From NCBI RefSeq assembly GCF_000025505.1, contig NC_013849.1:60001-92000 (forward strand): a DNA stretch of 32,000 nucleotides, written 5' to 3'. Source of the DNA: Ferroglobus placidus DSM 10642 (GTDB taxonomy: Archaea; Halobacteriota; Archaeoglobi; Archaeoglobales; Archaeoglobaceae). The position numbers were made by a program, and so were the translations under genes. The notes beneath the pieces were generated by a model. It was not told the origin of the DNA, searched no databases, and saw only the letters and a list, made by a program, of their open reading frames with translations. Shown piece by piece: positions 1,561 to 24,979 of the stretch; position 1 is the first letter of the stretch; each line of letters begins with the position of its first letter.

Positions 1561-2297
1561 TAAGAGTTGAAAATCTGACGAAGAGGTTCGGAGGAGTCGT
1601 TGCGGCAAACAACATAAGCTTTGAGGTGAAAAAGGGAGAGGTTCTCGGAATTATAGGACCTAACGGGAGCGGAAAAACTACTGTGGTGAATCTCATAACC
1701 GGATTCATAAAGCCAGACTCTGGGAAAGTGTTTTTTGCCGGAAAAGATATAACTTCAAAACCTCCCCACGAAATAGCTAACCTCGGCGTTGTTAGGACTT
1801 TTCAAAACGTCAGACCTTTCTACAACTTGCCAGCTTACAAGAATCTCATAATTCCTCTTTACTCCCCAAGGGCTAAAAGCTTCGAAGAGTTCAAACATGG
1901 GGATAGAGACCACATAGCTTTGGATCTTCTTGAAGAGGTCGGATTCGAAAGAGATTCTCCGATTCCGTACAAACCAGCCTCAGCTCTACCTCACGGATAC
2001 ATAAAAAGGCTTGAGCTTGCGAGGGCTTTGGCTTTAAAGCCAGAAGTTTTGATTTGCGACGAACTTTTCAGCGGTTTGAGTCAGGCTGAAATAGCGAGCT
2101 TGCTGCCGATACTTGAAAAGCTAAACGAGAACGGTTTGACGCTTATAATGGTAGAGCACAGACTCAAAGAGCTTTTCGAGTTAGCTGACAAAGTTGTGGT
2201 TTTGGAGTACGGGGAAAAGATAGCCGAAGGAAAGCCGGAGGAAATCGTTGAGGACGAGAAGGTTAAGGAGGCTTTTCTCGGTGCGGAGGTGATTTAA
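1545..2297 (+). CDS. livG: ABC transporter ATP-binding protein, LivG-like
   Basis: Has the N-terminal LTKRFGG motif, Walker A GPNGSGKTT and Walker B VLICDELFSGL. The ORF-track start is GTG at 1545. An in-frame TTG at 1557 overlaps the livM stop, follows GAGGTGGGTGA, and is an equally plausible start. Confidence 0.9.
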   Translation: MGESLIRVENLTKRFGGVVAANNISFEVKKGEVLGIIGPNGSGKTTVVNLITGFIKPDSGKVFFAGKDITSKPPHEIANLGVVRTFQNVRPFYNLPAYKNLIIPLYSPRAKSFEEFKHGDRDHIALDLLEEVGFERDSPIPYKPASALPHGYIKRLELARALALKPEVLICDELFSGLSQAEIASLLPILEKLNENGLTLIMVEHRLKELFELADKVVVLEYGEKIAEGKPEEIVEDEKVKEAFLGAEVI

Positions 2298-3043
2298 TGC
2301 TTAAAACGAATGAGCTCACGGTGTTCTACGAAAACGCAATAGCCGTTAACAACGTTGACATTGAGGTTGAGGAGGGAGAGATCGTCGGGTTATTCGGACC
2401 TAACGGAGCCGGAAAATCGACGCTGATGTACACGATTTCCGGGATAATACTTGATAAGAAAAAGAAGGAGGAGATGAGGGGTGGAGAGAGAATAACGATT
2501 CTCGGAAGGATAGAGTACGAAAAAAAAGATATAACTTTTCTCAAGCCGAATAAGAGAGCGGAAATGGGCATAATTCTCTGTCCGGAGAGAAGAAGGGTTT
2601 TTCCGGAAAGCAGCGTTGTTGAGAACTTGAAAATCGGAGGTTACCTTAGAAGCTGGAGGGAGGTGAAAGAAGATATAGAAAAGATGTTCGAGATATTTCC
2701 GGAGCTTGAAAAGCATAAAAACAAGCCTGCAGGCTTTTTAAGCGGAGGAGAACAGCAGATGCTTGCGATAGCGAGAGCTTTAATGGCGAAACCCAAGCTG
2801 TTACTTTTGGACGAACCCCTGCTCGGACTGGCTCCTCTCGTTCAAAAAAGGATAGTCGAAGTCGTAAAAAGAATAAGGGATGAGCTTGGAGTTACCGTCC
2901 TCGTGGCTGAGCAGTACGCGAGACCCGTCTTTCCGATAATCGACAGAGGTTACATCATCGAGCGGGGAACTATCTCCTTCTCCGGCACTTCCGAGGAGTT
3001 GATGAGTAACCCGAACGTTAAAGCAGCATATTTGGGGGTGTGA
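2297..3043 (+). CDS. livF: ABC transporter ATP-binding protein, LivF-like
   Basis: Has Walker A GPNGAGKST, ABC signature LSGGEQQMLAIARAL and Walker B LLLLDEPLLGLAP. A TAATG overlap links it to livG (stop 2295-2297, start 2297-2299). Confidence 0.9.
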   Translation: MLKTNELTVFYENAIAVNNVDIEVEEGEIVGLFGPNGAGKSTLMYTISGIILDKKKKEEMRGGERITILGRIEYEKKDITFLKPNKRAEMGIILCPERRRVFPESSVVENLKIGGYLRSWREVKEDIEKMFEIFPELEKHKNKPAGFLSGGEQQMLAIARALMAKPKLLLLDEPLLGLAPLVQKRIVEVVKRIRDELGVTVLVAEQYARPVFPIIDRGYIIERGTISFSGTSEELMSNPNVKAAYLGV

Positions 3044-3047
3044 GAGC

Positions 3048-4691
3048 ATGCTGAAAGATAATCTTCACGATAAAGTGCTGGAGATGACCGAGAAAGAAAA
3101 GACTGTTTTAACGAAAATTTACGAGATGAGCGAAAAGTATCCGGATCAAACGGCGCTAATTTTCTTGGGAGAAAAGTACAACTACAAAAAGCTAATCAAA
3201 CTAATAGAAAGCTTTTCTTCTGGAATTTCCGAGCTCGGAGTTAAAAAAGGAGATAGAGTAATGCTTTATCTTCCCAACTCCCCTCAGTTTCTCATCTCCT
3301 ACTTCGGATTGATGAGGATAGGAGCTATTCCGGTGCCCGTCTCTCCCATCTACACGAGTAACGAAATAAGGTACATGCTCGAAAACAGCGGAGCTAAAGT
3401 CGTTATCTGCAGCGATACGAACATAGGGTACGTTAGAGCCGTTGAAGAAGTTGGAGTTGAGAAAATCGTCGTTACGAACGTAGCTGATATGCTGCCAAAG
3501 TGGAAGAAAATTGTTGGAGAGCTTTTCGACAAAATTCCGAAGGGCAGCTACGAAAAATCCGAGAAAGTATTTGAGTTCAAAAAACTGCTTAAAAAAGGAG
3601 AAAGCGTTGAAGAAGCAGAAATTGATCCGAAGAAGGATATAGCGCACATTCTGTACACCGGCGGAACAACCGGAAGACCAAAAGGTGTCGTTCACACACA
3701 CGCTTTTCTGCTAAGCGGAATAATCGGGTTGAGGGAGACTTACAAAGAAATAAAAGAGCTTGAAAACAAGTTCGTCGTCGTCGTTCCCCTCTTCCACATG
3801 TTCGCATTGGACATGATAATGTCCACGACTCTCCACAAAGCCAACACCGCAATTTTGATGCCCAAGCCAAACATCGATGCAATCCTGGCGAGCATCGAGT
3901 ACTACGAAGCTACTCTTTTTGCCGGAGTTCCGACTCTCTACAGGATGATTCTCGAACACGATAGAGTCGACTATTACGACCTCTCCTCTCTCAAATTCTG
4001 CTGGAGCGCCGGAGACGTTCTTCCGGCTGAGGTTTACAAAATGTGGAAGGAGAAATTCGGAATTCCCCTCCACCAAGTTTACGGATCAACGGAAACCGTC
4101 GTCATTGCTGTAACGAGACTTTCTGAGGAGCCGAAGCTTGGTAGCGTTGGAAAGATAGTTCCGGGGAGAATCGCTAAGATTATCGATCCGGAAACGCTTG
4201 AGGAGGTTGAAGGGGAGGGGGAGTTGATCGTAACATCCGAATACCTCACCATGGGTTATTGGAGAAACCCGGAAGAGACGGAGAAGGGATTCATAGAGAG
4301 CGGAGGTTATCTGTGGTGCAGAACCGGAGATTTCGTGAAAATTTACGAAGATAAGCTATATTTCGTCGATAGAAGGAAGGACATCATCAAGTACAAAGGG
4401 TACAGAATTGCGGCAAGTGAAGTTGAAGCTGTTTTGCAATCCCATCCGGCTGTTATTGCTGCAAGCGTTATTGGTGTACCAGACGAGAGAGTTGGAGAAA
4501 GAATTAAGGCTTTCGTGGTGTTGAAGGAGGACGCGAGAATTACAGCTCATGATTTGAAGAGATGGTGCAGGGAAAGATTGGCACCTTACAAAGTTCCGGA
4601 CTACATCGAGTTCAGGGACTTTCTTCCGAAGTCAAAAGTTGGAAAGATTTTGAGGAGAGAATTAAGAGATCAGGAACTCAGGAGGGGATGA
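3048..4691 (+). CDS. AMP-forming acyl-CoA synthetase (FadD-like medium/long-chain acid-CoA ligase)
   Basis: Has the AMP-binding motif YTGGTTGRPKGVVHTH, then YGSTET, TGD and the C-terminal KVGKILRREL. It starts 4 nt after the livF stop, so it is probably co-transcribed with the transporter. Confidence 0.85.
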   Translation: MLKDNLHDKVLEMTEKEKTVLTKIYEMSEKYPDQTALIFLGEKYNYKKLIKLIESFSSGISELGVKKGDRVMLYLPNSPQFLISYFGLMRIGAIPVPVSPIYTSNEIRYMLENSGAKVVICSDTNIGYVRAVEEVGVEKIVVTNVADMLPKWKKIVGELFDKIPKGSYEKSEKVFEFKKLLKKGESVEEAEIDPKKDIAHILYTGGTTGRPKGVVHTHAFLLSGIIGLRETYKEIKELENKFVVVVPLFHMFALDMIMSTTLHKANTAILMPKPNIDAILASIEYYEATLFAGVPTLYRMILEHDRVDYYDLSSLKFCWSAGDVLPAEVYKMWKEKFGIPLHQVYGSTETVVIAVTRLSEEPKLGSVGKIVPGRIAKIIDPETLEEVEGEGELIVTSEYLTMGYWRNPEETEKGFIESGGYLWCRTGDFVKIYEDKLYFVDRRKDIIKYKGYRIAASEVEAVLQSHPAVIAASVIGVPDERVGERIKAFVVLKEDARITAHDLKRWCRERLAPYKVPDYIEFRDFLPKSKVGKILRRELRDQELRRG

Positions 4692-5171
4692 CTCAAAAAT
4701 TTCGGGGGAGAAGCGGAACTTGTAAATGTCGTAGACGAACATTAGGTTGAGCTCGTCCACAAATTCCCCGTGCCTGTCTAAGAACTCGTGAATCCACATG
4801 GTAACCTCTTTAAAGCTTCTGAAAGCTGCTAACACCTTCCATCTTCTCACCCCTCCAGTTACGGCGAACATAACAACGTGAGCTGAACCTATTAAATATT
4901 CATACGCTTTCTTCCATTTTTTGAAGTGGTGGTTGTTGAAGCTCATCTCGATAAAAGCGAAAATTAAGTTGTTCTCGTTTGGAATTATTACTTCCCTTAT
5001 CGCACCGCTCTTTTTTAGTTCTTGCAAAATTCTCGCAACTCTCGTCAGACTTATTTGTATTCCGTACTCTTTCAGCAAAATTTCTCTGAGCTCCTTGACG
5101 GTGACGTTCGGATTTTTCACCTTTTCTTTGATTATGATCGTCTTAACTTTATCCAGCTTCATACCTTTCAC
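4662..5171 (-). CDS. Lrp/AsnC-like transcriptional regulator (N-terminal HTH plus C-terminal alpha/beta ligand-type domain)
   Basis: The N-terminal HTH-like segment is NVTVKELREILLKEYGIQISLTRVARILQELKKSGAI. It is followed by a roughly 80-aa region patterned like the Lrp effector domain. GGTGAAAGG precedes the ATG, and an AT-rich TATA-like stretch lies in 5172-5222. The family call rests on pattern only. Confidence 0.6.
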   Translation of the reverse strand: MKGMKLDKVKTIIIKEKVKNPNVTVKELREILLKEYGIQISLTRVARILQELKKSGAIREVIIPNENNLIFAFIEMSFNNHHFKKWKKAYEYLIGSAHVVMFAVTGGVRRWKVLAAFRSFKEVTMWIHEFLDRHGEFVDELNLMFVYDIYKFRFSPEIFESSPPEFLIS

Positions 5172-5222
5172 CTTGCTTCTTAGTCACAAAGTGTTTAAAG
5201 GTGATAAAAAATTAATATTTAA

Positions 5223-6293
5223 TCATTTCGGAATCTTGAAAGGAGTTAAAGCTCGTTCCATGAGCAAATCGAAACCGCTCTTTTTGCCAATGACTGGCTC
5301 CTTCTTCTTTTGACTCCACACCGTCTCTGGACGAGCTTGAAGAATGAAAACGTTCTTTGGGAAGTCGAAGTCTTTATCTATTGCCCACTCTATGTCCATT
5401 GGATGAGAGTAATGTTCCTCAATCTTCTTCCCTATCTCCGCCAAGTAAACAATTTCCTCATCGCTCAAGGACGGCTTTTCCCTCAAATCCTCAGGAACTT
5501 CTTCGTGAACAACTTTCCCATCCTTGTAAACGCACCACACGAGTTTTGGAGAGATCGTTCTGTCCAATATTTCCTTCGTAACTTTATCTACGACGAACCT
5601 GTCTGGAGTTACCTCTCCACTTACAATAGCCTCTCCAAGCCCCCAAGCAGATTCGATAACGATCTGACTCTCATCTCCGTTTGTCGGATTGAGAGTGAAC
5701 ATAACTCCGCTGCTCCTCGAATTTACCATCTTCTGAACTACGACGGCGATGGAAACCTCATAATGATCAAAACCTTTCGTCGCTCTGTAGGCTATCGCTC
5801 TCGGAGTGTAGAGACTGCTCCAGCACTTTAAAACGTGCTTCACTACTTCATCCTCTCCTTTAATCCAGAGATAAGTTTCCTGCTGTCCGGCGAAACTTGC
5901 GTCGGGCACATCCTCTGCTGTTGCTGAGCTTCTTACAGCCACAGCCACTTCTTCGCCGACGATTTCGCACAGCTTTCTGTAAGCTTCTCTAATCTCTTCT
6001 TCGATTTTTTCCGGAATCGGAGTCGATTCCACAATCTCCCTCGCCAAAGCACTGACTTTTTCAAGCTCTTCCGTATTCTTTACGTCAACCTCGGATATTA
6101 TCCTCGCTATCTGCGCTTTCTTCCCCCTCTCTTTCGCCCCTTCTAAGAATTCCTCAAAAGCGTTTATTGTGATAACAAAGCCAGGTGGAATCGGAAAGCC
6201 AGCCTTTACCATCTCTCCTAAATTTGCCCCTTTTCCTCCTGCTATGCCAACATCTTCTTTGCTTATTTCGTCAAACCACTTAACATACTTCAT
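5223..6293 (-). CDS. PEP-synthase N-terminal (ATP-grasp, PPDK_N-type) domain protein; phenylphosphate synthase beta (PpsB)-like
   Basis: The N-terminus WFDEISKEDVGIAGGKGANLGEMVKAGFPIPPGFVIT is the nucleotide-binding motif of PEP synthase / pyruvate phosphate dikinase. The protein is 356 aa (about 40 kDa) and ends before any His-swivel or TIM-barrel domain. Confidence 0.75.
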   Translation of the reverse strand: MKYVKWFDEISKEDVGIAGGKGANLGEMVKAGFPIPPGFVITINAFEEFLEGAKERGKKAQIARIISEVDVKNTEELEKVSALAREIVESTPIPEKIEEEIREAYRKLCEIVGEEVAVAVRSSATAEDVPDASFAGQQETYLWIKGEDEVVKHVLKCWSSLYTPRAIAYRATKGFDHYEVSIAVVVQKMVNSRSSGVMFTLNPTNGDESQIVIESAWGLGEAIVSGEVTPDRFVVDKVTKEILDRTISPKLVWCVYKDGKVVHEEVPEDLREKPSLSDEEIVYLAEIGKKIEEHYSHPMDIEWAIDKDFDFPKNVFILQARPETVWSQKKKEPVIGKKSGFDLLMERALTPFKIPK

Positions 6294-6379
6294 AGAGTAC
6301 CACCTTCAACAATAGTCAATTATATATCGTTATATTTAAAACCTTGTCAAGTCTTAGCATTGATTAAAAATAATGGTGT

Positions 6380-6386
6380 AAAAAAA
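6380..6386 (-). terminator. Oligo-T (T7) tract 6 nt downstream of the PpsA-like stop; possible archaeal terminator
   Basis: The A7 run at 6380-6386 on the plus strand reads as T7 on the coding strand. A TATA-like ATATATAATTG and GAAGGTGGT follow before the next gene. Together they suggest separate transcription of the two pps-like genes. Confidence 0.35.
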
Positions 6387-6392
6387 GTGGAG

Positions 6393-8264
6393 CTATTCTT
6401 CGGCTCTCTTCACAATCGTTACTACTCCCTTATCTCCGTCCACCCTGATTATATCTCCGGTTTTTATCACCTGCGTAGCTATTCCCGTTCCGGTAACTGC
6501 TGGAATTCCGTATTCCCTACAAACTATCGCAGCGTGACTCGTCAATCCTCCTATGTCGGTCACAGCAGCTTTTATTTTCGTGAAAACGGGAGCCCAGCTC
6601 GGATTAGTATTTGGACAGACGAGAATCTCTCCCTCCTGCACCTGATCTATCTCATCCAAGAACCTTATAACTCTGGCTTTCCCTTCAACAACTCCAGATG
6701 AAGATGCAAATCCTTTTATTTCCGTGACTTCCTCCGGTCGGTAGGTAACACCTTTAATCCACTCGCTGACTTTCTCCGAAGTTATTCCCCAGAGCATCAC
6801 GGTAAATGGTTCCGTTACCTCTTCAGGAACGGTTCCCAAAGCTGGCGGAGGAGTCCAGTTCCTCGCTGCTTCGAGAATCTTCTTTCTCTTTTGAGCTTTT
6901 CTCTTCCAGTATTCAGCTCTCGGCGGCACGTTTTCTCCCAGAGCCCAAGCGGTGACGAGATCTTCAATGATCATTGGAATTTCGAAGCGATTGAAGAGGA
7001 AGATGTCGTCCACTTCGTTTAGCATTCCGTACCTGACGAAAAGTTTTCCGAACTCTCTCATTTTCTCAAAAACTATCGTGTGGAACCAGTGCTCGACCCA
7101 GAAGAGGTGGTTTTCGGCGTAATCGTAAATGTCTCTGACAATCTTGTACGCTTCGTCGAACGCTTTTCTATCTTCGTCGGTTTTGATTAGCTTTCTGTAC
7201 TCCTCAACGAGCTTTTCTCTCGCTTTGTGGATCTCGTCGATGTCTCTCTCTATCGTCTCACCTTTTTCAAGCATCTCTATGTAGCTTTTTAAGTAGCTGA
7301 AGGGGACTTCAAGGGTGTTTATCCAGCTTCCCTCGTAGTGGAACCATCCGCTACCGCAGGAGACGTAGAACCACGGATCTTTCGCCTCGTCAAATGCTCT
7401 AAGCCACTCTCTCCCTTCAGGAAAAATCTTTAATTCCTCAATCTTCTCCTCCGGGCTTTTGTCCGATTTCAGTATTTCCACAACCCTACCTCCAAGGGAA
7501 ATGGCGAGCCTCGCAAGTTTTGCAAGCTCTTCTTGCGGTCGAAACATCACCACGTCAGCTCCGGCTACCATCTTACCTATCGTGGACTCGCTTATTCCGG
7601 GGAAAAGCTTTCTGACAACGTCAGCAAAAGTCAGATAAGCCAAGTAGCTCAGATTTAGGTACTGGAAGTGGTACTGCCAAGCTTTGAATATCGCATCTAT
7701 CAGCTTGTCGTAGGCTTCCATCAAGTCGTAGGAGGAATAGTACCCTCTTGGCTCCGGAATTACCCTTTCCTCTGGCTCAAAGGTTGGCAAATCAGGAACT
7801 TCTATGTTCTTAACGTACTCTCCGAGCTCTCTGAACTTCTTTTCCCACTTTTCATACAACTTCTCGCTCTTGTAATTCTGAAAAACCCAGAAAGCTCTTT
7901 TTTGAAACAGCTCGGCTTTCTTCTTAATCGTTTCCTCGCTTGGAGGCTCTACTGCGCAGATGTAGAAGTAGCAACCGAGAATTCTCTGGGCAACTCCCTG
8001 CGCTGGAGGAATGCAGAAGACCCTCGTGTTGTACTGAGATAAAGCGATCTGCCAAGCTTCGTGGAAGATCAAGTCGAAGGGATACATTGGATCTGGCGCG
8101 TGTATTTTGTCGAGGTACCAGAACTGCCTTTCTTCCCACTCTTTTCTCTCTTCGCTGAATATGTAGTGGGGTGGATACATCTCTTCCCATCCTTCAAGCT
8201 CCTTTGGAACTTCCACTTCCAGCGGTTTAGGAAATCCGTTTCCCAAAACTACCACCTCACCCAA
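6393..8264 (-). CDS. PEP-utilising-enzyme mobile (phosphohistidine) domain protein; phenylphosphate synthase alpha (PpsA)-like
   Basis: A 623-aa protein (about 70 kDa). Its C-terminus TDIGGLTSHAAIVCREYGIPAVTGTG is the phosphohistidine swivel motif, and the protein ends about 40 aa later with no PEP/pyruvate-binding barrel. The long N-terminal domain has no motif I recognise. Confidence 0.75.
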   Translation of the reverse strand: MGEVVVLGNGFPKPLEVEVPKELEGWEEMYPPHYIFSEERKEWEERQFWYLDKIHAPDPMYPFDLIFHEAWQIALSQYNTRVFCIPPAQGVAQRILGCYFYICAVEPPSEETIKKKAELFQKRAFWVFQNYKSEKLYEKWEKKFRELGEYVKNIEVPDLPTFEPEERVIPEPRGYYSSYDLMEAYDKLIDAIFKAWQYHFQYLNLSYLAYLTFADVVRKLFPGISESTIGKMVAGADVVMFRPQEELAKLARLAISLGGRVVEILKSDKSPEEKIEELKIFPEGREWLRAFDEAKDPWFYVSCGSGWFHYEGSWINTLEVPFSYLKSYIEMLEKGETIERDIDEIHKAREKLVEEYRKLIKTDEDRKAFDEAYKIVRDIYDYAENHLFWVEHWFHTIVFEKMREFGKLFVRYGMLNEVDDIFLFNRFEIPMIIEDLVTAWALGENVPPRAEYWKRKAQKRKKILEAARNWTPPPALGTVPEEVTEPFTVMLWGITSEKVSEWIKGVTYRPEEVTEIKGFASSSGVVEGKARVIRFLDEIDQVQEGEILVCPNTNPSWAPVFTKIKAAVTDIGGLTSHAAIVCREYGIPAVTGTGIATQVIKTGDIIRVDGDKGVVTIVKRAEE

Positions 8265-8301
8265 AAGTTTTCAAACAATAAATAATTAGAAATATTTAGC
8301 T

Positions 8302-8312
8302 CTTTGTCAACA
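8302..8312 (+). promoter_or_regulatory. Copy 1 of the exact 11-mer CTTTGTCAACA; candidate operator in the PpsA-like/Nudix divergent region
   Basis: An exact repeat of 8424-8434, followed by the 8-bp palindrome ACAATTGT (8311-8318). Confidence 0.3.
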
Positions 8313-8423
8313 ATTGTCATTGAAAAGTTTAAAAGCTAAGTGCTAATTCGAATTGATCGAATTTTTCTTTGGCAGCGGGTTAATTCACAAGCAGAGTCTT
8401 GGTGTGCTCGGAAACGTAAATAA

Positions 8424-8434
8424 CTTTGTCAACA
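8424..8434 (+). promoter_or_regulatory. Copy 2 of the exact 11-mer CTTTGTCAACA, directly downstream of a TATA-like GTAAATAA, 48 nt upstream of the Nudix ATG
   Basis: An exact repeat of 8302-8312. The position, just 3' of a TATA-like box, is typical of archaeal repressor sites. Confidence 0.3.
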
Positions 8435-8481
8435 CCTGACGTTGAAAAATCTTCTTATTGCTTCGCTCTTTTAAATTCTCC

Positions 8482-8901
8482 ATGAAGTTTGAGGTGATCG
8501 TCAGAGGCATTGTTAAGGATGGAGACAAAGTTCTCATCGGATTGAAGAGAAGGGACGATCCTCACCCGCTACAAGGTGAGTGGCACTTCCCCGGGGGAAG
8601 GTTGGAGTACGAAGAGAATCCTTGGGAGGCTGTTGAAAGGGAGATCGAGGAAGAGACCGGGTATAAAGTAAAGGCGGAGAGGATTATCGACGTCATTCCT
8701 AAAAAGCTCATCTGGCCGAACGAAATTGGAGAGCAGCAAACGCTACACGTAGTCTTTTCTTGCAAACTACTCGGAGGGAAAGCAAAAGCGGGAGACGATG
8801 TTGAAGAGGTCAAGTGGATTTCTGTGGAGGAGATAGACCGCTACTTGAAAAAAGAGTTTCTGCTGGAATCGAGTTTAGTTAGGGAGTTCATCGAATCTTG
8901 A
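8482..8901 (+). CDS. Nudix hydrolase (MutT family)
   Basis: Carries a complete Nudix box, GGRLEYEENPWEAVEREIEEETG. The ORF-track start is TTG at 8458. The first ATG at 8482 (MKFEVIV...) gives a typical Nudix N-terminus and is preferred. Confidence 0.85.
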   Translation: MKFEVIVRGIVKDGDKVLIGLKRRDDPHPLQGEWHFPGGRLEYEENPWEAVEREIEEETGYKVKAERIIDVIPKKLIWPNEIGEQQTLHVVFSCKLLGGKAKAGDDVEEVKWISVEEIDRYLKKEFLLESSLVREFIES

Positions 8902-9651
8902 TAGGATTAGATCTCTTATCGCCCTCGATATGTCTCTGTTCTTCAAAACTACGGCTTCGTCGTACCACCTTCTCTCTTTTAAGCTACCTTCCGAAGGCAT
9001 TATTATCGCCTCTTCGCAGTCTCTAACGTACATCCTCGCGGAGGATTTGAATTCCGAGCAGATGGCTACTTTGCTCAAAGTCTCTACTATATCCTTCGGA
9101 AGCTCGCTGAGGGGGGCGAGCAGATATATTTTCACACCCCTTTCACTTGCTTCGAATATCTCGGGCTTGTACTCGTAAACTATCCTAATAGATTCGTTGC
9201 TTGTGGCAGCGATGGCGAGCTCTTCGTCGCTTCTGTTTATAAACTCCTTAATCGTGCTTATCAACACCCTCCTCCCCGTCACTTCGTAGGAAATCGTGTT
9301 CGATACGTTTCCCCTTACACCTATTGACCTTACAATGTTAAGAAATTCCTCTCTCAATTTGAACAAATTATACAGTCTCTTCTCAACATCTCTTATGAGC
9401 ATCGAAGTAGCCACTTCCGGAGACACAGCGTAGTACCTTCTCGGCTTCTGCGCGGAAACGTAGATTAACCCTTTTTCACTCAAATTTTCCAGGATGTCGT
9501 AGATTCTCTGTCTGGTCAATCCAACTTCCTTGGCTAACTCGCTGACTGAAGCCCCGGACTTCTTCAGTAGGAGCAGGTATATTTCAGCCTCCGTCTTACT
9601 CAAACCCAGATCTTCCAGAATGTTTGTCAACCGTGACTTATATTCCTGCAT
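8875..9651 (-). CDS. TrmB-family transcriptional regulator
   Basis: The N-terminal winged HTH is LGLSKTEAEIYLLLLKKSGASVSELAKEVGLTRQRIYDILENLSEKGLI, followed by a roughly 170-aa C-terminal domain. It is transcribed divergently from the UbiD operon. Confidence 0.8.
   Translation of the reverse strand: MQEYKSRLTNILEDLGLSKTEAEIYLLLLKKSGASVSELAKEVGLTRQRIYDILENLSEKGLIYVSAQKPRRYYAVSPEVATSMLIRDVEKRLYNLFKLREEFLNIVRSIGVRGNVSNTISYEVTGRRVLISTIKEFINRSDEELAIAATSNESIRIVYEYKPEIFEASERGVKIYLLAPLSELPKDIVETLSKVAICSEFKSSARMYVRDCEEAIIMPSEGSLKERRWYDEAVVLKNRDISRAIRDLILSRFDELPN
9623..9631 (+). promoter_or_regulatory. Copy 3 (9-mer core TTTGTCAAC) inside the first 30 nt of the TrmB-like gene
   Basis: The context gTTTGTCAACc shares the 9-nt core with the two 11-mers. 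Confidence 0.2.
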
Positions 9652-9809
9652 TACAATGTATTGAAATTCAAAGCATTACTTAAACCTTTCCACCAGCCTC
9701 CATTTAAATTAAATGTTGGTTATGGAAACTTCCAAGCTAAATCTGTAAAATTGAAAATTTGACACAATTTTATCTACATTAAACATTACGGTAGTTTTTA
9801 GGTGGTAGG

Positions 9810-11339
9810 ATGGGGGAGTTTATAGAAAAAAAGGACTACTTCGGAGTGAGGTTTCCGATACCGAGAGATCTGAGAGCTTTCATTGAAATACTTGAGAAGG
9901 AGGGAGAGTTGAAGAGAATAAAAGCGGAGGTCGATTGGAATCTCGAATTGTCGCACATAGCAAAGCTGAATGAAGAAAGAAGCGGTCCGGCTTTACTCTT
10001 CGAGAACATAAAGGACTACAAGCCGGGAGAGAAGAGGGGAAGCAAAGTATTCACTTCAGCTTTCACAACTCCGAAAAGGGTTGCGATAGCTTTGGGAATG
10101 GACAGAAGCGCTGGGGTTGTTGACATAGCGAGAGAATGGATGACGAGAGTTACGAAGGGAGGAAAGATTCCTCCGAAGAAAGTTAGCGATGGACCAGTTA
10201 TGGAGAACGTAGTTGAGGGGGACAAAATTAATTTGCTCGATTTTCCAGTGCCGCAGGTTTATCCTCAGGACGGTGGCAGATACTTCGGCACGGCAGTTTA
10301 CTTATTAACTAAAGATCCAGAGAAGGGGAAGGAGTGGGTAAATCTCGGCACATACAGAATGATGGTCCTCGACGAGAAGAGCTTGGGTGTTCAGATTCTC
10401 AAGGGAAAGGATGCCGACGTGATGATGCAAAAGTACAGGGAAATGGGAGAAAAGGAGATGCCAGCAGCAGCAGTTATCGGAGGAACCCCTCTCGGCTTCC
10501 TAACTGGAAGCACCCTCGTCGAATACGGGACGAGCGAGTACGAGATAATCGGTGCTTTGCAAGGTGAGCCAGTAGAAGTTATCGAGAGCGATTTGACCGG
10601 TTTGCCTATAGATGCGAGGGCAGAAATTGTCGCGGAGGGATTCATTCCGGTTGACGAAAAAGAGTGGAGACCCGAGGGACCTTTCGGAGAGTACACTGGC
10701 TACTACTCAGGAAAAGCTAAAGAGGAATTTCCAAAGCCTTGGATTAGAGTGGAGAGGATAATGCATAGAAACGATCCGATATTCTGGGTGACAACTGTCG
10801 GAAGACCGGTTACTGACACGCACATGATTCAGTCTATAAACAGAACAGCCGAGCTATGGACTCAGCTCGAACAGATGGGAGTTCCGGGAATACAGTCCGT
10901 CTACATACCTCCAGAAAGCGGTGGAAGATTCTGGGCGATAATTTCTATAAAGCAGATGTATCCGGGACACGGAAGGCATGCAGGATTGGCAGCTTTCGCC
11001 ACAGTCGTCGGAAACTACGGAATGAAGGGAGTCATTGTTGTAGATGACGACATAAGAGCTGATGATTTGCCGAGAGTCTGGTGGGCTTTGTCGGTGAGGT
11101 ACAACCCGGTCGAAGACACCGAGATTATAAAGAAGGGTAGGTCAACGCCTTTAGATCCCTCACTGCCGATATACAAGGACTGGTACGACAGAAGGTTGCT
11201 GGTTTCGAGAATCCTCATAGATGCAACGACTCCCTACGAATGGGAGAGGAAGCCGCAGGTTATAGAGCTCGACAAAGAAACTGTGGAAAAGCTGAAGCAG
11301 AGGTGGGACGAGTTCGGCTTCGACTGGAAGCCGGAGTAA
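9810..11339 (+). CDS. ubiD: UbiD-family prFMN-dependent (de)carboxylase
   Basis: A 509-aa protein. Its N-terminus DLRAFIEILEKEGELKRIKAEVDWNLELSHIAKL and its overall length and pattern match UbiD. The Shine-Dalgarno AGGTGGTAGG lies directly upstream. The substrate cannot be assigned from the sequence alone. Confidence 0.9.
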   Translation: MGEFIEKKDYFGVRFPIPRDLRAFIEILEKEGELKRIKAEVDWNLELSHIAKLNEERSGPALLFENIKDYKPGEKRGSKVFTSAFTTPKRVAIALGMDRSAGVVDIAREWMTRVTKGGKIPPKKVSDGPVMENVVEGDKINLLDFPVPQVYPQDGGRYFGTAVYLLTKDPEKGKEWVNLGTYRMMVLDEKSLGVQILKGKDADVMMQKYREMGEKEMPAAAVIGGTPLGFLTGSTLVEYGTSEYEIIGALQGEPVEVIESDLTGLPIDARAEIVAEGFIPVDEKEWRPEGPFGEYTGYYSGKAKEEFPKPWIRVERIMHRNDPIFWVTTVGRPVTDTHMIQSINRTAELWTQLEQMGVPGIQSVYIPPESGGRFWAIISIKQMYPGHGRHAGLAAFATVVGNYGMKGVIVVDDDIRADDLPRVWWALSVRYNPVEDTEIIKKGRSTPLDPSLPIYKDWYDRRLLVSRILIDATTPYEWERKPQVIELDKETVEKLKQRWDEFGFDWKPE

Positions 11340-11362
11340 ATTTCTAATTTTTTATTTTCGAG

Positions 11363-12070
11363 GTGGTAAATTTGGTTAAGTGGATCGGCTTCGATTACGG
11401 ACAATGCTTGATGGACTCTTCGAACAGAAAAGTCGAGTACTGGATGGCAGCAGTTTTCATAGACGAAGAAAAGGAAAGACCGGGGATAATAAACGAGAAG
11501 GTGAAGCTTTACAACGAGCTGATAGAGAAGTACGGAGATTTTAGAAGGTTGCACGAAAAGGGGAGGCACGAGGTTGAGGAGAAAGTTCTCGAGAACAATC
11601 CGTGTTTGATAAAGAGGTATTACGAAGTGGAACAAAAGCTTCTAAAACCAGCGGATGGAGCTGAAGACGCTCTGAGGTATCTGAAAAAGAAGGGCTACGT
11701 TCTCGACGTAGTTTCTGATATGAGCACGGTGAACGTGATAATCAATTTCCTAAACAACTACAACCTCCGCCACTTCTTCTCCAACATCTACTCCCCTATT
11801 GGTGTTGTTAGAGAGAGCGGAGAAATCGACGAGAGCTTTAAAGGAGTTTCAAAGGAAGACGGAAGCCTTTACGAGAAGTTGAAGGAAGACCTCGAGAGGA
11901 GAGGAATTGACGTTTCCGAGGCTGTAATGGTTGGAGATCATCCGGTGAAGGATGTTGAAATGGCAAAGAAGTACGGATTCATAACCGTCCACTACGACGT
12001 GAAAGGAAAACCTTCGGACAAAGCGGATTACGTAATAAGCCACTTCTCGGAGCTTAAAAAGATATTTTAA
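11363..12070 (+). CDS. HAD-superfamily-like protein with non-canonical motif I
   Basis: Motif I reads FDYGQC, keeping the nucleophile Asp but with Gly at D+2. Motif II-like is VVSDMS and motif IV is VMVGDHPVKDV. The ORF-track start is GTG at 11363. TTG at 11372, 4 nt after GAGGTGGT, is a likely true start. Confidence 0.6.
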   Translation: MVNLVKWIGFDYGQCLMDSSNRKVEYWMAAVFIDEEKERPGIINEKVKLYNELIEKYGDFRRLHEKGRHEVEEKVLENNPCLIKRYYEVEQKLLKPADGAEDALRYLKKKGYVLDVVSDMSTVNVIINFLNNYNLRHFFSNIYSPIGVVRESGEIDESFKGVSKEDGSLYEKLKEDLERRGIDVSEAVMVGDHPVKDVEMAKKYGFITVHYDVKGKPSDKADYVISHFSELKKIF

Positions 12071-12079
12071 GGGGTCGAT

Positions 12080-13654
12080 ATGCCCATTTCCGGAGAAAAG
12101 TTCGAATTTAACGTTCCGGAAAGAATGAATTTAGCGGAGATCGTTGTTGACAGGCAAGCTGAAAGGTTTCCAGAAAAAACGGCAATTGTTTGCGTTGGAA
12201 GCGAAAAAATGGGAATAAAAGAGGAGAAGGTAACATTTAAAGAGTTGAAAGATTTGACGAATAAAGCTGCGAACGCTTTTATTAATGAAGGAATGAGCTT
12301 TGACGACAGAGTTCTAATAGTTTTGCCCGACTCCATAGACTTCTACATCGCCTTTTACGGAGCTATAAAGCTCGGAGCCGTGCCAGTGCCTGTAAACACG
12401 TATCTTTTCGAGGAGGATTACGCTTACTTCTTGGAAGATTCCCGGGCTAAATTTGCGGTAATTTACAGCGGTTTCGAAAAAGCTTTGAAAGCAGCTGAAA
12501 ATTCGAAGTATCTCAAAGAAGTTTTTACTGAAAAAGATTTGAGGGAACTTACGAATAAAGCATCTTCGGAATTCGAACCTTTAAAGCTCAGCAAGGATTC
12601 GATGGCTTTCTGGCTTTACAGTTCCGGAACGACCGGAAAGCCGAAGGGAGTTGTTCATCTCCACCACGATCCGATCTTCGTTTGCGAAAGCTATCACAGA
12701 AGAGTTCTCGGACTGAGCAGCGAAGACGTGTGCTACTCCGTTAGCAAGCTCTTCTTCGCCTACGGACTCGGAAGCTGCGGATACGGTAGTTTATACTTCG
12801 GGGCAACAGTGGTGGTTGATCCGGAAAGACCCGATCCGGAGAGAGCTGCAGAAATACTCGAAAAATACGGAGTTACAGCTTTGTTTACCGTCCCATCTTT
12901 CTACGCGAGGCTCGTAGAAATTGATAGGGATGTGAAGCATAAGTTAAGAATCGCTGTGAGCGGAGGAGAGCCTTTGCCGGAAGCTGTATGGTACAAGTTC
13001 AAAGAGAAGTTCGGAGTTGAGATAGTTGAGCATATAGGATCAACCGAGGCTTTGTACGCTTTCATCGGTCACTATCCGGGGAAAGTCAAGCCCGGATACA
13101 CCGGAGTCGTAATGCCCGGGTGGGAGGTTAAGCTTGTCGACGAGAACGGAAACGAAATAGTCGAGGACGGGATTCCCGGCAAACTTTTGATTAAGGGTGA
13201 CTCGGTGGCTGCTTTTTACTGGGAAAAGCACGAAAAGACGAAAAAAGCCTTTCTCGGAGAGTGGTACGACACTGGCGACACCTTCGTTAAAGAGGGCGAA
13301 TACTTCAAGTACCACGGAAGGGCAGACGACTTGATAAAAACGAGAGGGCTTTGGGTTTCTCCGGTTAAAGTTGAGAACGCTTTATTAAAGCATCCGGCGA
13401 TAGAAGAATGCGCAGTTGTGCAGGGATTTAACGAGAAAAAACTCGAGGTCGTTGCGGCTTACGTTGTTCTAAGGAAAGGATACGACGAAAGCGTTGTGGA
13501 TGATGTAAAAAGATTTTTGAGGGAGCAGGGGCTGAAAGGCTTCGAAATCCCTGAGAAATGGGTTTTTGTCAGAGAACTTCCGAGAACCGCTACTGGAAAA
13601 ATTCAAAAATACAAGTTGAGGATGAAAGAGTTTGAGGAGGCGTTTGGGAAATGA
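12080..13654 (+). CDS. Aryl-CoA ligase of the benzoate / 4-hydroxybenzoate-CoA ligase type (AMP-forming)
   Basis: Has YSSGTTGKPKGVVHLHHD and the C-terminal ELPRTATGKIQKYKLR. The ..TATGKIQ.[FY]KLR tail is what I associate with benzoate-type ligases. It starts 9 nt after the HAD-like gene. Confidence 0.8.
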   Translation: MPISGEKFEFNVPERMNLAEIVVDRQAERFPEKTAIVCVGSEKMGIKEEKVTFKELKDLTNKAANAFINEGMSFDDRVLIVLPDSIDFYIAFYGAIKLGAVPVPVNTYLFEEDYAYFLEDSRAKFAVIYSGFEKALKAAENSKYLKEVFTEKDLRELTNKASSEFEPLKLSKDSMAFWLYSSGTTGKPKGVVHLHHDPIFVCESYHRRVLGLSSEDVCYSVSKLFFAYGLGSCGYGSLYFGATVVVDPERPDPERAAEILEKYGVTALFTVPSFYARLVEIDRDVKHKLRIAVSGGEPLPEAVWYKFKEKFGVEIVEHIGSTEALYAFIGHYPGKVKPGYTGVVMPGWEVKLVDENGNEIVEDGIPGKLLIKGDSVAAFYWEKHEKTKKAFLGEWYDTGDTFVKEGEYFKYHGRADDLIKTRGLWVSPVKVENALLKHPAIEECAVVQGFNEKKLEVVAAYVVLRKGYDESVVDDVKRFLREQGLKGFEIPEKWVFVRELPRTATGKIQKYKLRMKEFEEAFGK

Positions 13655-14238
13655 GGATCGTCGTAGCTCTAACGGGAGCTTCCGGACAGATTTACGGAAT
13701 AAGGCTTCTCGAATACTTAAGTAAAACGGATATCGAGACGCATCTTGTTATCTCTCCGGCTGCCAAAGAAAATATAGAGATAGAGACGGAATACAGCGTA
13801 GAATACGTTGAGAGCTTGGCGGATTTCTGCTACGACTACATGGACTTCACGGCTCCAATAGCAAGCGGAAGTTTCAAGCACGACGGGATGATCGTGATCC
13901 CCTGCTCGATCAAAACAGCTTCGGCGATAGCAAACAGCCTCAACTACAACCTGATAATCAGAGCAGCAGACGTGACTTTGAAGGAGAGGAGAAAGCTCGT
14001 TCTCGTCGTTAGAGAGACTCCGCTTCATTCCGGTCACTTGAGGATGCTCGCCAAGCTTTCGGATCTCGGAGCGATAGTATACCCGCCAGTTCCAGCGTTT
14101 TACTCCAAACCGAAGAGCTTGGACGACATCGTAAATCACACGGTGGGAAGAGCCCTCGATCTTCTCGGAGTTGAGAACAACCTCTACAAACCTTGGATGG
14201 GCAGGGAGAGTATATCGGAGAAGGAGTTCAATTTGTAA
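13651..14238 (+). CDS. ubiX: UbiX-type flavin prenyltransferase (prFMN synthase)
   Basis: The N-terminus is MRIVVALTGASGQIYGIRLLEYL, followed by ..MIVIPCSIKTASAIANS.. and ..LVVRETPLHSGHLRML.. An ATGA overlap links it to the ligase gene (13651-13654). Confidence 0.9.
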   Translation: MRIVVALTGASGQIYGIRLLEYLSKTDIETHLVISPAAKENIEIETEYSVEYVESLADFCYDYMDFTAPIASGSFKHDGMIVIPCSIKTASAIANSLNYNLIIRAADVTLKERRKLVLVVRETPLHSGHLRMLAKLSDLGAIVYPPVPAFYSKPKSLDDIVNHTVGRALDLLGVENNLYKPWMGRESISEKEFNL

Positions 14239-14795
14239 TCGGCATCAAGCTCTGAAAATTTATTTTCCCCCTCCAAAACAGCTATTTTAATTCCGGCTCT
14301 TTTGCAAGCCTCCACATCTGATCTGCTATCACCTACGAAGAGAACATCTTTTTTGCTGACCTTAAGCGATTCGATCGCTTTTAATATTCCCATCGGAGAC
14401 GGTTTTAAAAGCTGAACGTCCTTTCTTCCTATAACAACCTCGAAGCTGCCGGCTATTTGAAATTTTTCAAGAGCTTTTTTCAAAACGTCCTTGCTTACGT
14501 TAGAAACCACCGCCTTTTTAACCCTCAGCTTTTCGAGAACTTCCTTGACTCCCTCTCTAAGCTTCCACCTCTTAAAAGCCTCTAAATCGTACTTGTCGTA
14601 GATATTGTCGATCAAAGAAATTAAGGATGGATGATATGAAGCTACGAAGTTGTATATCTCGGCGTAGTTGCTACTCTCGATCTCAATTCCCCTCTCTTCG
14701 AGAACGCTTTTCGCTTCTTTCACTGCCTTACTCAAATCCCAAGCGAAGTTGACAAGTGTCCCCTCAAAGTCGAAGATTAGTGCTTTGAACGTCAT
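14184..14795 (-). CDS. HAD-IA family phosphatase (phosphoglycolate-phosphatase-like)
   Basis: Motif I is LIFDFEGTL, motif II VVSNVS, and motif III the Lys in LLKPSPMG. Motif IV is LFVGDSRSDVEA. The ATG at 14795-14793 overlaps the stop (14794-14792) of the upstream molybdoenzyme gene, so the longer ORF-track start at 14831 is unlikely. Confidence 0.8.
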   Translation of the reverse strand: MTFKALIFDFEGTLVNFAWDLSKAVKEAKSVLEERGIEIESSNYAEIYNFVASYHPSLISLIDNIYDKYDLEAFKRWKLREGVKEVLEKLRVKKAVVSNVSKDVLKKALEKFQIAGSFEVVIGRKDVQLLKPSPMGILKAIESLKVSKKDVLFVGDSRSDVEACKRAGIKIAVLEGENKFSELDADYKLNSFSDILSLPIQGL

Positions 14796-16837
14796 TCTTT
14801 CCTCGCAAGGAGTGCTTTCAGCTCCGGGCATCCGGAAATCGGATCTCCGGGCTTGTTTGAGGTAAGAACGTTAACGTTCCCTTCGCTCCATCCGTGGGGG
14901 ATGTTTATTACTCCCGGGGCTATGTCTTCGGTAACTTTAGCTCTGACGACTATGCTTCCCCTCTCGGTTTTGACGATAACCTTGTCTCCGTCCTTCACTC
15001 CGAACTTCTCTGCAGTTTTCGGATTTATCTCAACGTAAGCCTCCGGAAGAATTCTTCTCATCTTCTCCACGTTTCTCATTTGGGAATGGGTGTAGTAAAC
15101 GTCCCTCGCCCCGGTAGTTAGAATTAAAGGATATTCCTTGGCTTTTTCGCTGTACGGACTTTCGCTCGGCTCTTTCGGGGTTGGAATCGGATCGTAGCCG
15201 AGTTTTTTCAAAGTTTCCGAGTATATCTCGACTTTCCCGCTCGGAGTTTTGAATCCTCTCTTCTTGTACTCTTCGTACTTTACTTCTCCAGTCCAAACTC
15301 CTGAAGGATATTTTTCGTTCAGATCTTCGAAGGAGTAGCCGGTAGGCTCCAAAACGTAATCGAGAACTTCTTCAACGCTCGTCCACGGGAAGTAGTTATC
15401 GAATCCCATTTTCTTCGCAAGCTCAAGCCAGAATTCCACGTCACTCTTAGCCTCTCCCAAAGGCTCTATCACCTTCTTCCTCAGCATCATGTAGGGAATT
15501 CCGAATATCACGCTGTAGTAGTCGACGAGCTCGTATCTTTCAAGGAAAGAGGCGGCGGGTAAGAAAACATCTGCGTGTTTTGCTGTTTCCGTCATGAACA
15601 TATCCATAACCGCCAGAAATTCCACCTTCTTCAGCATCTCCACGACTTTATTCGAGTTGGGCCAGGTTAAAGCCGGATTTGATCCGGCGACAAAGATGCT
15701 TTTAATTGGGTACGGCTTTCCTTCGAGGACAGCGTCGTATAAATACATCCCCTGCCCCTCGCCAAGATGAGTTTCCCAGACTTGGTAGAATAGGGGGTGC
15801 TCCTTAATTCCGAGAGGCACGTCTTCCAGCATTTCCACGAGCCTGAGGTTTCTCGTGTGGACTCTTGCAGCTCTGACAAATCCTCCCTTTACATCGATGT
15901 TCCCCGTTAAAGCGTGGAGAATAGCCACGCTCCTCGCGTTCTGCACGCCAGTAGGAACCTGATCCAGAGCGTTCACCCCTTGGACTATGCATGCCGGCTT
16001 TGTTGTTGCGAAAGTTCTTGCAATCTCAGTAATCGTCTCTGCTTCAACCCACGTTCTTTCGGCTATTTCCTCCAGAGAATATTTGGCTACGTGATTTTTC
16101 AATTCTTCAAAGCCGACGCAGTAATTGGAGACAAATTCCTTATCGTAAAGCTCCTCTTCGATTATGACTTTCATCAACCCCAAAGCTAAGTAGGTGTCGC
16201 TGCCCGGTCTAATTGAGGCGTGTATGTCAGCCATCTTCGCAACCTTGGTTCTTCTCGGATCGATTACTATAAGCTTCGCTCCTCTTTCTCTGGCTTTGTC
16301 TATCCTCCAAGCCAAAGGTGGCTTGGAAGCGTGGGGATTGTGAGCCCAGACGATTATGCAGTTAGCATTGTCTACATCAGCTACGTTGAACTTTCCGATC
16401 GTGAGAATGTAGCCTATTATCTGATGCCTGTAACACATGCTCTCGGGAGAGAAGCAGTTTGGAGTACCATAGACATCCATAAACCTCCTTATGAAGCCTA
16501 CAGTAGATGAACCTCCGAGAAGTATCGGCATTCCGATTATCGTAGCAAAGTACCTCGGGTCCTCTTCTCTTATCTCCTTCAAATTCTCAGCCACGAGCTC
16601 TATAGCATAATCCCAGTCAACCTTTTTCCACTTCTCTCCTTCCTTGACCATCGGACGCGTCACTCTTTCTTTCGAGTAGATGTAATCTGGAGCGACGCTT
16701 CCTTTCGGGCAGAGCCTTCCAAAATTGAGAGGGTGCTCCTTCATTCCCTTAACACTCGTTATTCTTCCCTTTTCAACTTTCACATCCATTCCGCAACTCC
16801 AAGCGCAAAGCTCGCAAGCTGTCTTGATTATCATCAC
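14792..16837 (-). CDS. Molybdopterin (bis-MGD) oxidoreductase catalytic subunit, DMSO-reductase superfamily, cytoplasmic type
   Basis: The N-terminal 4Fe-4S motif is C-x2-C-x3-C-x27-C (CELCAWSCG...LCPKG), starting at residue 8. There is no twin-arginine signal. The 681-aa protein has the pattern of a molybdopterin oxidoreductase plus a C-terminal MopB_CT-like barrel (VKDGDKVIVKTERGSIVVRAKVTEDIAPGVINIPHGW). Confidence 0.85.
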   Translation of the reverse strand: MMIIKTACELCAWSCGMDVKVEKGRITSVKGMKEHPLNFGRLCPKGSVAPDYIYSKERVTRPMVKEGEKWKKVDWDYAIELVAENLKEIREEDPRYFATIIGMPILLGGSSTVGFIRRFMDVYGTPNCFSPESMCYRHQIIGYILTIGKFNVADVDNANCIIVWAHNPHASKPPLAWRIDKARERGAKLIVIDPRRTKVAKMADIHASIRPGSDTYLALGLMKVIIEEELYDKEFVSNYCVGFEELKNHVAKYSLEEIAERTWVEAETITEIARTFATTKPACIVQGVNALDQVPTGVQNARSVAILHALTGNIDVKGGFVRAARVHTRNLRLVEMLEDVPLGIKEHPLFYQVWETHLGEGQGMYLYDAVLEGKPYPIKSIFVAGSNPALTWPNSNKVVEMLKKVEFLAVMDMFMTETAKHADVFLPAASFLERYELVDYYSVIFGIPYMMLRKKVIEPLGEAKSDVEFWLELAKKMGFDNYFPWTSVEEVLDYVLEPTGYSFEDLNEKYPSGVWTGEVKYEEYKKRGFKTPSGKVEIYSETLKKLGYDPIPTPKEPSESPYSEKAKEYPLILTTGARDVYYTHSQMRNVEKMRRILPEAYVEINPKTAEKFGVKDGDKVIVKTERGSIVVRAKVTEDIAPGVINIPHGWSEGNVNVLTSNKPGDPISGCPELKALLARKE

Positions 16838-24943: not shown

Positions 24944-24945
24944 AG

Positions 24946-24961
24946 AAATACTTAAATACTT
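24946..24961. promoter_or_regulatory. Tandem 8-mer AAATACTT x2 in the 36-bp gap between the two divergent IS genes; candidate bidirectional TATA/operator region
   Basis: AAATACTTAAATACTT is read directly from the sequence, between the start codons at 24943 (minus) and 24980 (plus). Confidence 0.3.
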
Positions 24962-24979
24962 TTTGGTTGGAATCAGAAC

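Follow-up and report, generated by a model that had tools for sequence, protein, structure and literature searches.

Ferroglobus placidus DSM 10642 carries, in the 32,000-nt stretch analysed here (the window; all positions refer to this whole stretch), a gene cluster that very probably serves to activate phenol without oxygen, converting it to 4-hydroxybenzoyl-CoA. This reading is based on the annotation of its UbiD-family gene as ppcB, the family tests passed by its proteins, the catalytic histidine of PpsA, the growth of the organism on phenol, a gene core conserved in other prokaryotes, the linkage of a HAD protein to PpcB, and the location of benzoyl-CoA reductase and a benzoate-CoA ligase elsewhere in the genome. 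The cluster is already published (Holmes et al. 2012, ISME J) and annotated, and its non-canonical make-up is also known. What is modestly new is the archaeal pairing of PpcB with a HAD protein bearing a D-x-G motif, together with the different accessory gene sets in the two prokaryotic domains. The features, located on an open reading frame (ORF) map of the window, are as follows.

4662..5171, minus strand: small helix-turn-helix (HTH) protein, a 169-aa ORF or 166 aa from the ATG at 5162 (structure model).
5223..6293, minus strand: ppsB, 356 aa, ATP-grasp (PPDK_N) subunit (Pfam, NCBIfam; identical to ADC64274).
6393..8264, minus strand: ppsA, 623-aa ORF (ORF map, Pfam, NCBIfam; PpsA_FP in the literature).
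8302-8326 and 8424-8448, plus strand: pair of 25-nt direct repeats, candidate operator (repeat count).
8458..8901, plus strand: MutT-like Nudix hydrolase (Pfam, NCBIfam).
8875..9651, minus strand: TrmB-family transcription regulator (Pfam, NCBIfam).
9810..11339, plus strand: ppcB, UbiD-family protein of the prenylated FMN (prFMN) type, 509 aa (TIGR02724; ADC64278).
11372..12070, plus strand: HAD subfamily-I hydrolase with a helical cap, 232 aa (longest ORF 11363-12070, 235 aa).
12080..13654, plus strand: benzoate-CoA ligase family protein, 524 aa (TIGR02262; ADC64280).
13651..14238, plus strand: ubiX, flavin prenyltransferase, 195 aa (Pfam, TIGR00421 and NF004685; GenBank match).
14184..14831, minus strand: second HAD hydrolase, 215 aa (Pfam, NCBIfam), lying beyond the stretch described in an earlier reading.

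The minus-strand genes are separated by spacers of 99 nt (ppsA to ppsB) and 51 nt (ppsB to the 169-aa ORF), and the plus-strand ppcB operon has gaps of 23, 9 and -4 nt on the longest ORFs, the last being the overlap of the ubiX start with the end of the ligase gene. The Nudix and TrmB genes are placed between these two groups, and Pfam agreed with the earlier reading, made from the sequence alone (the sequence-only reading), that both are embedded in the locus. The ORFs, spacers, gaps and motifs quoted in that reading were reproduced by the ORF map and a motif check, apart from corrections of start codons. The database start of the HAD gene is the TTG at 11372 (232 aa, identical to database protein P0297), which is preceded by a Shine-Dalgarno-like site, GAGGTGGT; therefore the real gap between ppcB and the HAD gene is 32 nt. 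The longest-ORF versions of the 623-aa and 169-aa proteins were absent from the protein collection. PpsA homologues in the collection are 614-619 aa long, and the true start of PpsA probably lies a few codons 3' of the TTG; the 166-aa form of the small HTH protein (ATG 5162) is equal in length to its sole homologue. Five window proteins were identical to GenBank entries (ADC64272, ADC64274, ADC64278, ADC64280, and ADC64281), and ADC64278, the UbiD protein, is named there as "phenylphosphate carboxylase, beta subunit." Locus tags counted back from the AcnX pair further along the window (~Ferp_0085-0094) were unreliable because of unannotated small genes and were not used.

The growth of F. placidus on phenol and the link of these genes with phenol metabolism were taken from the literature. 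According to the genome paper, the organism oxidises phenol, 4-hydroxybenzoate, benzoate, and benzene with Fe(III), and the genes of its phenol pathway "have been recently characterized" (papers of 2011 and 2012). Later literature on PpsAB names the pair PpsAB_FP, lists it among the reported phenylphosphate synthases, states that the PpsA_FP histidine is equivalent to His569 of Thauera, and also notes the PPDK_N domain.

By family, the two pps proteins are the subunits of a split phenylphosphate synthase. The 623-aa protein corresponds to the ~70-kDa His-domain subunit, which lacks both an ATP-grasp domain and a barrel. Its sole Pfam match was the mobile domain of phosphoenolpyruvate (PEP) utilizers (PF00391, residues 543-613), and its N-terminal region was of the PRK08296 type (NCBIfam NF006153, 1078 bits vs a cut-off of 578). 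The phosphorylatable histidine of the swivel domain is residue 577 of the ORF, within GGLTSHAAIVCREYGIPAV / GGLTSHAAIV. The adjacent, separate ~40-kDa ATP-grasp subunit is PPDK_N alone (Pfam PF01326, 409 bits); it covers the first 341 of the 784 positions in the PEP-synthase model, and GGKGANLGEM begins at its residue 19. Neither protein matched the PEP/pyruvate barrel in Pfam or NCBIfam, so that the pair is PEP-synthase-like and barrel-free, as the sequence-only reading had described it. Rifampicin phosphotransferase (RPH) and PEP synthase share the chemistry of ATP-grasp and swivel phosphohistidine, but they are single polypeptides, and the barrel of PEP synthase is absent from the F. placidus pair. 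Matches of PpsA in the structure database were confined to residues 504-617, the best being RPH and PEP synthase over residues 514-617; its N-terminal ~500 residues, presumed to be the phenol-binding part, had no solved-structure relative by sequence. The reaction phenol + MgATP + H2O -> phenylphosphate + AMP + Pi would be catalysed by PpsAB, an assignment that we take solely from the literature.

Thauera aromatica and Aromatoleum aromaticum likewise have a split kinase of ~70-kDa His-domain and ~40-kDa ATP-grasp proteins, a UbiD-type beta subunit, a HAD beside the carboxylase and a dedicated aryl-CoA ligase, in the same order of reactions. However, the CBS-domain PpsC, the PpcA and the 10-kDa PpcC of the Thauera PpsABC and PpcABCD systems were all missing from the F. 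placidus window. PpsC is reportedly described with CBS domains, and no CBS-domain ORF, let alone a two-CBS-domain PpsC, was found among the main and 73 minor ORFs of the window; the 169-aa protein has no CBS domains and therefore is not PpsC.

The carboxylase half was assigned in the same manner. The UbiD protein passed the NCBIfam equivalog for the beta subunit of phenylphosphate carboxylase (TIGR02724, 559 bits vs 469), while it fell below the alpha model (TIGR02723, 202 bits vs 565); it carries three UbiD domains (Pfam) and is the sole UbiD gene in the window. UbiX passed TIGR00421 (262 bits vs 109) and NF004685 (255 vs 188), and the ligase passed TIGR02262 (441 bits vs 375), with AMP-binding and C-terminal domains present and the motifs SSGTTGKPKG from residue 181 and PRTATGKIQKYKLR from residue 501. 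The operon of UbiD, HAD, benzoate-type ligase and UbiX proposed earlier was thus confirmed in its domain calls by both databases. The ligase would be the 4-hydroxybenzoate-CoA ligase; the benzoate-CoA ligase of F. placidus that has been assayed is another gene, Ferp_1044. None of the window's large ORFs matched a domain of 4-hydroxybenzoyl-CoA reductase or benzoyl-CoA reductase (Pfam, NCBIfam), in agreement with the sequence-only reading. Benzoyl-CoA reductase (Ferp_1184-1187), like Ferp_1044, is located elsewhere in the genome, and therefore the concern over a missing benzoyl-CoA reductase is resolved.

The remaining carboxylase subunits of Thauera were also sought. Within the window, to which the search was limited, there is no PpcA alpha paralogue, as only one UbiD ORF is present, and no model of the 10-kDa gamma subunit PpcC or of any other phenylphosphate carboxylase subunit was matched among the 73 minor ORFs (60-260 aa), whose only NCBIfam match was DUF2080; moreover, the intergenic gaps of the cluster are too short for a ppcC gene. 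The single UbiD and the lack of a gamma-like ORF noticed before therefore held when main and minor ORFs were scanned. As for the 18-kDa delta subunit PpcD, neither HAD matched its NCBIfam model at E <= 1e-5 among the families listed. With ppsA, ppsB, one ppcB, ubiX, an aryl-CoA ligase gene and no ppcC, the locus belongs to the PpcB-only clusters. Geobacter metallireducens GS-15, Desulfatiglans anilini, and Syntrophorhabdus likewise have PpsA, PpsB, a single PpcB, and UbiX, with a ligase nearby and no PpcC, and the F. placidus PpsA is 65-77% identical to those of many metagenome-assembled genomes (MAGs) of Desulfobacterota. In D. anilini, pps-alpha, pps-beta, ppc-beta, ligase, and reductase genes are clustered and the genome lacks ppc-gamma, which its authors took to indicate "a different catalytic mechanism"; according to another study, strict anaerobes have a core of PpsAB, PpcB, and a UbiX-like protein in common. 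The non-canonical stoichiometry that had been remarked upon is real, but it is this known layout of strict anaerobes and is not novel.

To place the cluster among its relatives, genomes were scanned at one per species, and the best 80 loci by PpsA (65-98% identity, all from MAGs) were searched with the window proteins; the characterised PpsA of Thauera and Geobacter were not among them. Six MAGs of Archaeoglobaceae (Ferroglobus, Geoglobus, and Archaeoglobus sp. JdFR-37; loci L001-L006) kept the layout of the window. Among these best 80, the core PpsA-PpsB-PpcB...UbiX was found in ~70 bacterial loci, mostly of Desulfobacterota, plus Dehalococcoidia and others, and ppsAB occurred together with ppcB in ~50 loci across the two domains. 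This core agrees with the clusters of D. anilini and G. metallireducens, which are described as induced by phenol. The accessories of the bacterial loci were LysR, UPF0261, a PAC_bac protein, and a different type of AMP ligase; the archaeal loci instead had TrmB, two HADs, Nudix, and the benzoate-type ligase. Because these sets differ, only four genes are common to both domains. Identities between archaea and Desulfobacterota were 65-77% for PpsA, 47-57% for PpsB, 49-64% for PpcB, and 52-60% for UbiX. The far higher conservation of PpsA is consistent with inter-domain transfer and with strong constraint on this protein, and its 77% identity to that of a bacterial MAG points to such a transfer. 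In ~30 Desulfobacterota loci, a ~175-aa receiver-domain protein lies directly after ppcB (e.g., L034 9729-10256 and L059 14844-15374). A low-molecular-weight phosphotyrosine phosphatase was considered as the bacterial analogue of delta and rejected, as it was found only in L034 and L035.

The HAD protein encoded after ppcB belongs to a very small family, with 25 clusters among 5.8 billion proteins. The nucleophile Asp is kept in all members, the general-acid Asp is replaced by Gly in all but one, and motifs II-IV are intact. The sequence-only reading had called this HAD larger than the Thauera subunit and its catalytic motif degenerate; it is indeed larger (232 aa in the database, not 235), but the motif is a conserved trait of the family. 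Its AlphaFold model (predicted local distance difference test score, pLDDT, 93.6) has the capped subfamily-I fold, and the closest structures were P. horikoshii PH1655/PH0459 and L-2-haloacid dehalogenases. The 18-kDa delta of Thauera differs from this capped, D-x-G protein and is not orthologous to it. Relatives of at least 58% identity always adjoin a PpcB-type UbiD that passes TIGR02724, and this pairing occurs in four archaeal lineages, including Archaeoglobaceae, Ca. Caldarchaeum, and a Juan de Fuca subsurface archaeon. In Ca. Caldarchaeum, UbiD and HAD overlap by 4 nt and are followed by Nudix, PpsA, PpsB, and a further HAD; in the Juan de Fuca archaeon the order is TrmB | UbiD-Nudix-HAD ... 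UbiX. Of the distant relatives (35-41% identity), the two sampled (P0316 and P0321; 35-38%) were not beside a UbiD; the linkage is therefore limited to the clade of at least 58% identity. It is plausible that this HAD is a non-orthologous functional stand-in for the Thauera delta, that is, the partner of PpcB that would dephosphorylate phenylphosphate; without a general acid, it would suit the release of phenolate rather than phenol.

From this gene content and layout we infer the following route. PpsB would pyrophosphorylate the swivel-domain histidine of PpsA, which would then lose the terminal phosphate and pass the remaining one to phenol, giving phenylphosphate, AMP, and Pi. PpcB, with prFMN supplied by the co-transcribed UbiX, would carboxylate the phenolate derived from phenylphosphate at the para position, and the HAD translated immediately 3' of ppcB would most likely do the dephosphorylation, as delta does in Thauera. 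The resulting 4-hydroxybenzoate would be converted by the benzoate-type ligase to 4-hydroxybenzoyl-CoA, whose dehydroxylation and dearomatisation would be left to enzymes encoded elsewhere. Control of the two divergent promoter regions would fall to the regulator of the TrmB family, perhaps together with the small HTH protein.

The same phosphorylate-then-carboxylate chemistry could also act on another substrate, such as catechol, hydroquinone, a cresol or acetophenone derivative, or aniline, although we regard this as unlikely. AcvAB of Sphingobium SYK-6 and CreHI of Corynebacterium glutamicum are the same pair of PPDK_N and His-domain proteins, with 40-44% identity to PpsA_FP, and act on acetovanillone and a 4-cresol derivative; they are, however, paired with a biotin-type carboxylase or with an oxidation step, and not with UbiD. 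D. anilini reportedly uses related synthases and carboxylases for aniline. In two Ca. Caldarchaeum loci (L081/L082 5462-16454), the module UbiD-HAD | Nudix | PpsA-PpsB-HAD stands with FAA hydrolase, LigB/LigA, and PEP-mutase/ICL genes, and no CoA ligase was present in it, which suggests aerobic or other-substrate use there, e.g., from catechol to protocatechuate. On the other hand, F. placidus grows on phenol and the literature assigns its PpsAB to phenol, its UbiD passes the equivalog of the phenylphosphate carboxylase beta subunit, and a benzoate-type CoA ligase lies within the operon. Furthermore, the PpsA clade of at least 65% identity is syntenic with PpcB in loci of Desulfatiglandales and other Desulfobacterota among the best 80, and a ppsA-ppsB-ppcB cluster is induced by phenol in the cultured relative D. 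anilini.

A quite improbable alternative keeps phenol as the substrate and makes PpsAB a separate system, with UbiD and UbiX either decarboxylating 4-hydroxybenzoate reversibly or carboxylating phenol directly without ATP, in the manner of VdcBCD/ShdBCD. Those systems likewise combine a UbiD with a UbiX and have 4-hydroxybenzoate and phenol as substrates; one paper has a UbiD-like protein of F. placidus carboxylating phenol directly, and the absence of the alpha, gamma, and delta subunits from the window would also fit. The scores on their models fell well short of the cut-offs (308 bits vs 650 for UbiD on VdcC, and 248 vs 290 for UbiX on VdcB), while the phenylphosphate beta model was passed, and no VdcD-like small subunit was found among the 73 minor ORFs of the window. 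The linkage of ppsAB to ppcB, kept in ~50 loci of two domains, argues for one pathway. Direct carboxylation of phenol is, besides, thermodynamically unfavourable. That UbiD and UbiX instead form the anhydromevalonate-phosphate decarboxylase of the archaeal mevalonate pathway is scarcely credible: the large and small subunits of AcnX, a family that we take to include the phosphomevalonate dehydratase of this pathway, do lie 15 kb away in the window (29689-31210, minus strand), and Archaeoglobales are expected to use the pathway, but the UbiD passes the PpcB equivalog, shares its operon with a benzoate-type ligase, has orthologs (52-64% identity) beside ppsAB in bacteria, which do not use the pathway, and is separated from AcnX by eleven unrelated protein-coding genes and a transposase remnant.

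Several points nevertheless weigh against the assignment of the locus to phenol activation. The transcript evidence for the cluster is second-hand: the genes for phenol carboxylation via phenylphosphate reportedly lie in a single cluster, with transcripts higher on phenol. No assayed enzyme from the cluster was found in the literature, and in one secondary source the data on F. placidus are interpreted as a UbiD-like enzyme carboxylating phenol directly. PpsAB-like pairs phosphorylate other phenolics, e.g., acetovanillone and 4-cresol derivatives, and the homologous module of Ca. Caldarchaeum has a LigAB extradiol dioxygenase and lacks the CoA ligase, therefore membership in the family alone does not fix the substrate. 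Finally, how PpcB-only systems work without alpha and gamma is an acknowledged open question. In sum, the growth on phenol and the PpsAB_FP literature, taken with the TIGR02724 result, favoured the first of the two options that the sequence-only reading had left, a streamlined archaeal phenol-type module.

The accessory genes of the phenol cluster were less uniformly kept. The second HAD has a D-x-E motif I and converges on ubiX with a 55-nt overlap; orthologs of 47-58% identity stand at the equal position in L003-L005, and Ca. Caldarchaeum has after ppsB a 214-aa HAD_2/Hydrolase protein that matches it weakly (34% over 61 residues). It may be an accessory phosphatase, syntenic in Archaeoglobaceae. 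The Nudix gene is transcribed divergently from ppsA and has orthologs in the same place in L001 (91%) and L005 (71%), while the search with the window proteins found none in the Geoglobus loci. Nudix genes recur beside genes of the D-x-G HAD family but in unrelated subfamilies, being MutT-like here, NudE-like in L081, YfcD/IDI-like in L083, and CoA-pyrophosphatase-like in L087; the idea that Nudix is a conserved orthologous component was rejected accordingly.

The TrmB gene is divergent from the ppcB operon, is kept in L001-L006, and also faces UbiD (TrmB | UbiD) in L083; Thauera and Aromatoleum have instead the sigma-54 regulator PheR. For the small HTH protein, the protein database contains a single close homologue; Archaeoglobus sp. 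JdFR-37 has an ortholog (56%) in the equivalent place. The sequence-only reading had called this protein Lrp-like, a label that did not find support. The 169-aa ORF had no significant match in Pfam or NCBIfam (HTH matches were weak) and none to HTH_AsnC or AsnC_trans_reg (RAM) in Pfam at E <= 1, and hhalign against a hand-entered sequence of E. coli Lrp gave a non-significant probability of 2.6%, although in register. In its AlphaFold model (mean pLDDT 54), three N-terminal helices forming the helix-turn-helix are confident, whereas the beta-alpha-beta-beta-alpha-beta order of the C-terminal half is of low confidence, and the model was too poor for a fold search. The protein may be Lrp-like, and it is possibly a ligand-sensing regulator. 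A 25-nt repeat, CTTTGTCAACAnnTGnCnTTGAAAA, occurs twice in the 193-bp divergent intergenic region of ppsA and nudix (0.00 expected); it may be an operator to which either the TrmB-like protein or the HTH protein of 169 aa binds. Beyond the window it was seen only once, in the Ferroglobus MAG L001, so no argument can be made from conservation. The HAD family and its pairing, the non-orthologous recurrence of Nudix, and the unconfirmed state of the Lrp-like label may all be absent from the literature.

The surroundings of the cluster were inspected as well. Immediately upstream (17-4691, plus strand), an ABC transporter of the LivHMGF type is encoded together with a FadD-like AMP ligase (ADC64272); in MAGs of Geoglobus and Archaeoglobus, too, the cluster is bordered by genes for Liv-type ATPases and a ligase, and the transporter possibly takes up aromatic acids. 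Following the second HAD, at 14792-16837 (minus strand), is a molybdopterin oxidoreductase that looks cytoplasmic and belongs to the DMSO-reductase/Fdh-alpha type; it scored below all equivalog cut-offs. Archaeoglobus sp. JdFR-37 has it conserved in the same place (79%), and L018, L047, L055, and L059 carry homologues (33-37%) no more than 10 kb from ppsA. The oxidoreductase was rejected as the 4-hydroxybenzoyl-CoA reductase, which is of the xanthine-oxidase type. Further on, 24770-25948 gave a weak match to an IS5-family transposase (322 aa, 46 bits, below the cut-off), with a DUF2080 transposase-associated peptide beside it, where an overlapping ORF of the minus strand ends; this region is probably a degraded insertion element, and a HEPN/nucleotidyltransferase pair follows at 26085-26793. 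The genome paper lists the AcnX pair as "predicted aconitase" (Ferp_0107-0108).

Returning to phenol, strict anaerobes and F. placidus have only one of the four carboxylase subunits of Thauera, and we know of no PpcB-only enzyme that has been reconstituted. A tentative proposal, which we think is more probably wrong than right as a whole, is that the archaeal phenylphosphate carboxylase consists of the PpcB-type UbiD and the dedicated D-x-G HAD, with related roles for the receiver-domain and Nudix proteins. In it, phenylphosphate would give up its phosphoryl group to the HAD, which would pass the phenolate on, still unprotonated, to the prFMN site. Because receiver domains form phospho-Asp as HADs do, the receiver-domain protein after the bacterial ppcB might be the counterpart of delta or of the HAD partner and could represent a third, independent phospho-Asp solution. 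It is also conceivable, if weakly so, that the Nudix neighbours supply dimethylallyl monophosphate as the cofactor precursor for UbiX, based on the production of this compound for prFMN by E. coli NudJ and on the IDI/YfcD-like neighbour in L083. If true, this proposal would address how PpcB-only strict anaerobes carboxylate phenylphosphate. The kept pairing of PpcB and HAD offers a concrete two-protein combination for expression and testing. To our knowledge, no archaeal, hyperthermophilic route for activating phenol anaerobically has been described other than the F. placidus cluster, which is relevant to thermostable biocatalysts for carboxylation and whose significance was already recognised on publication.

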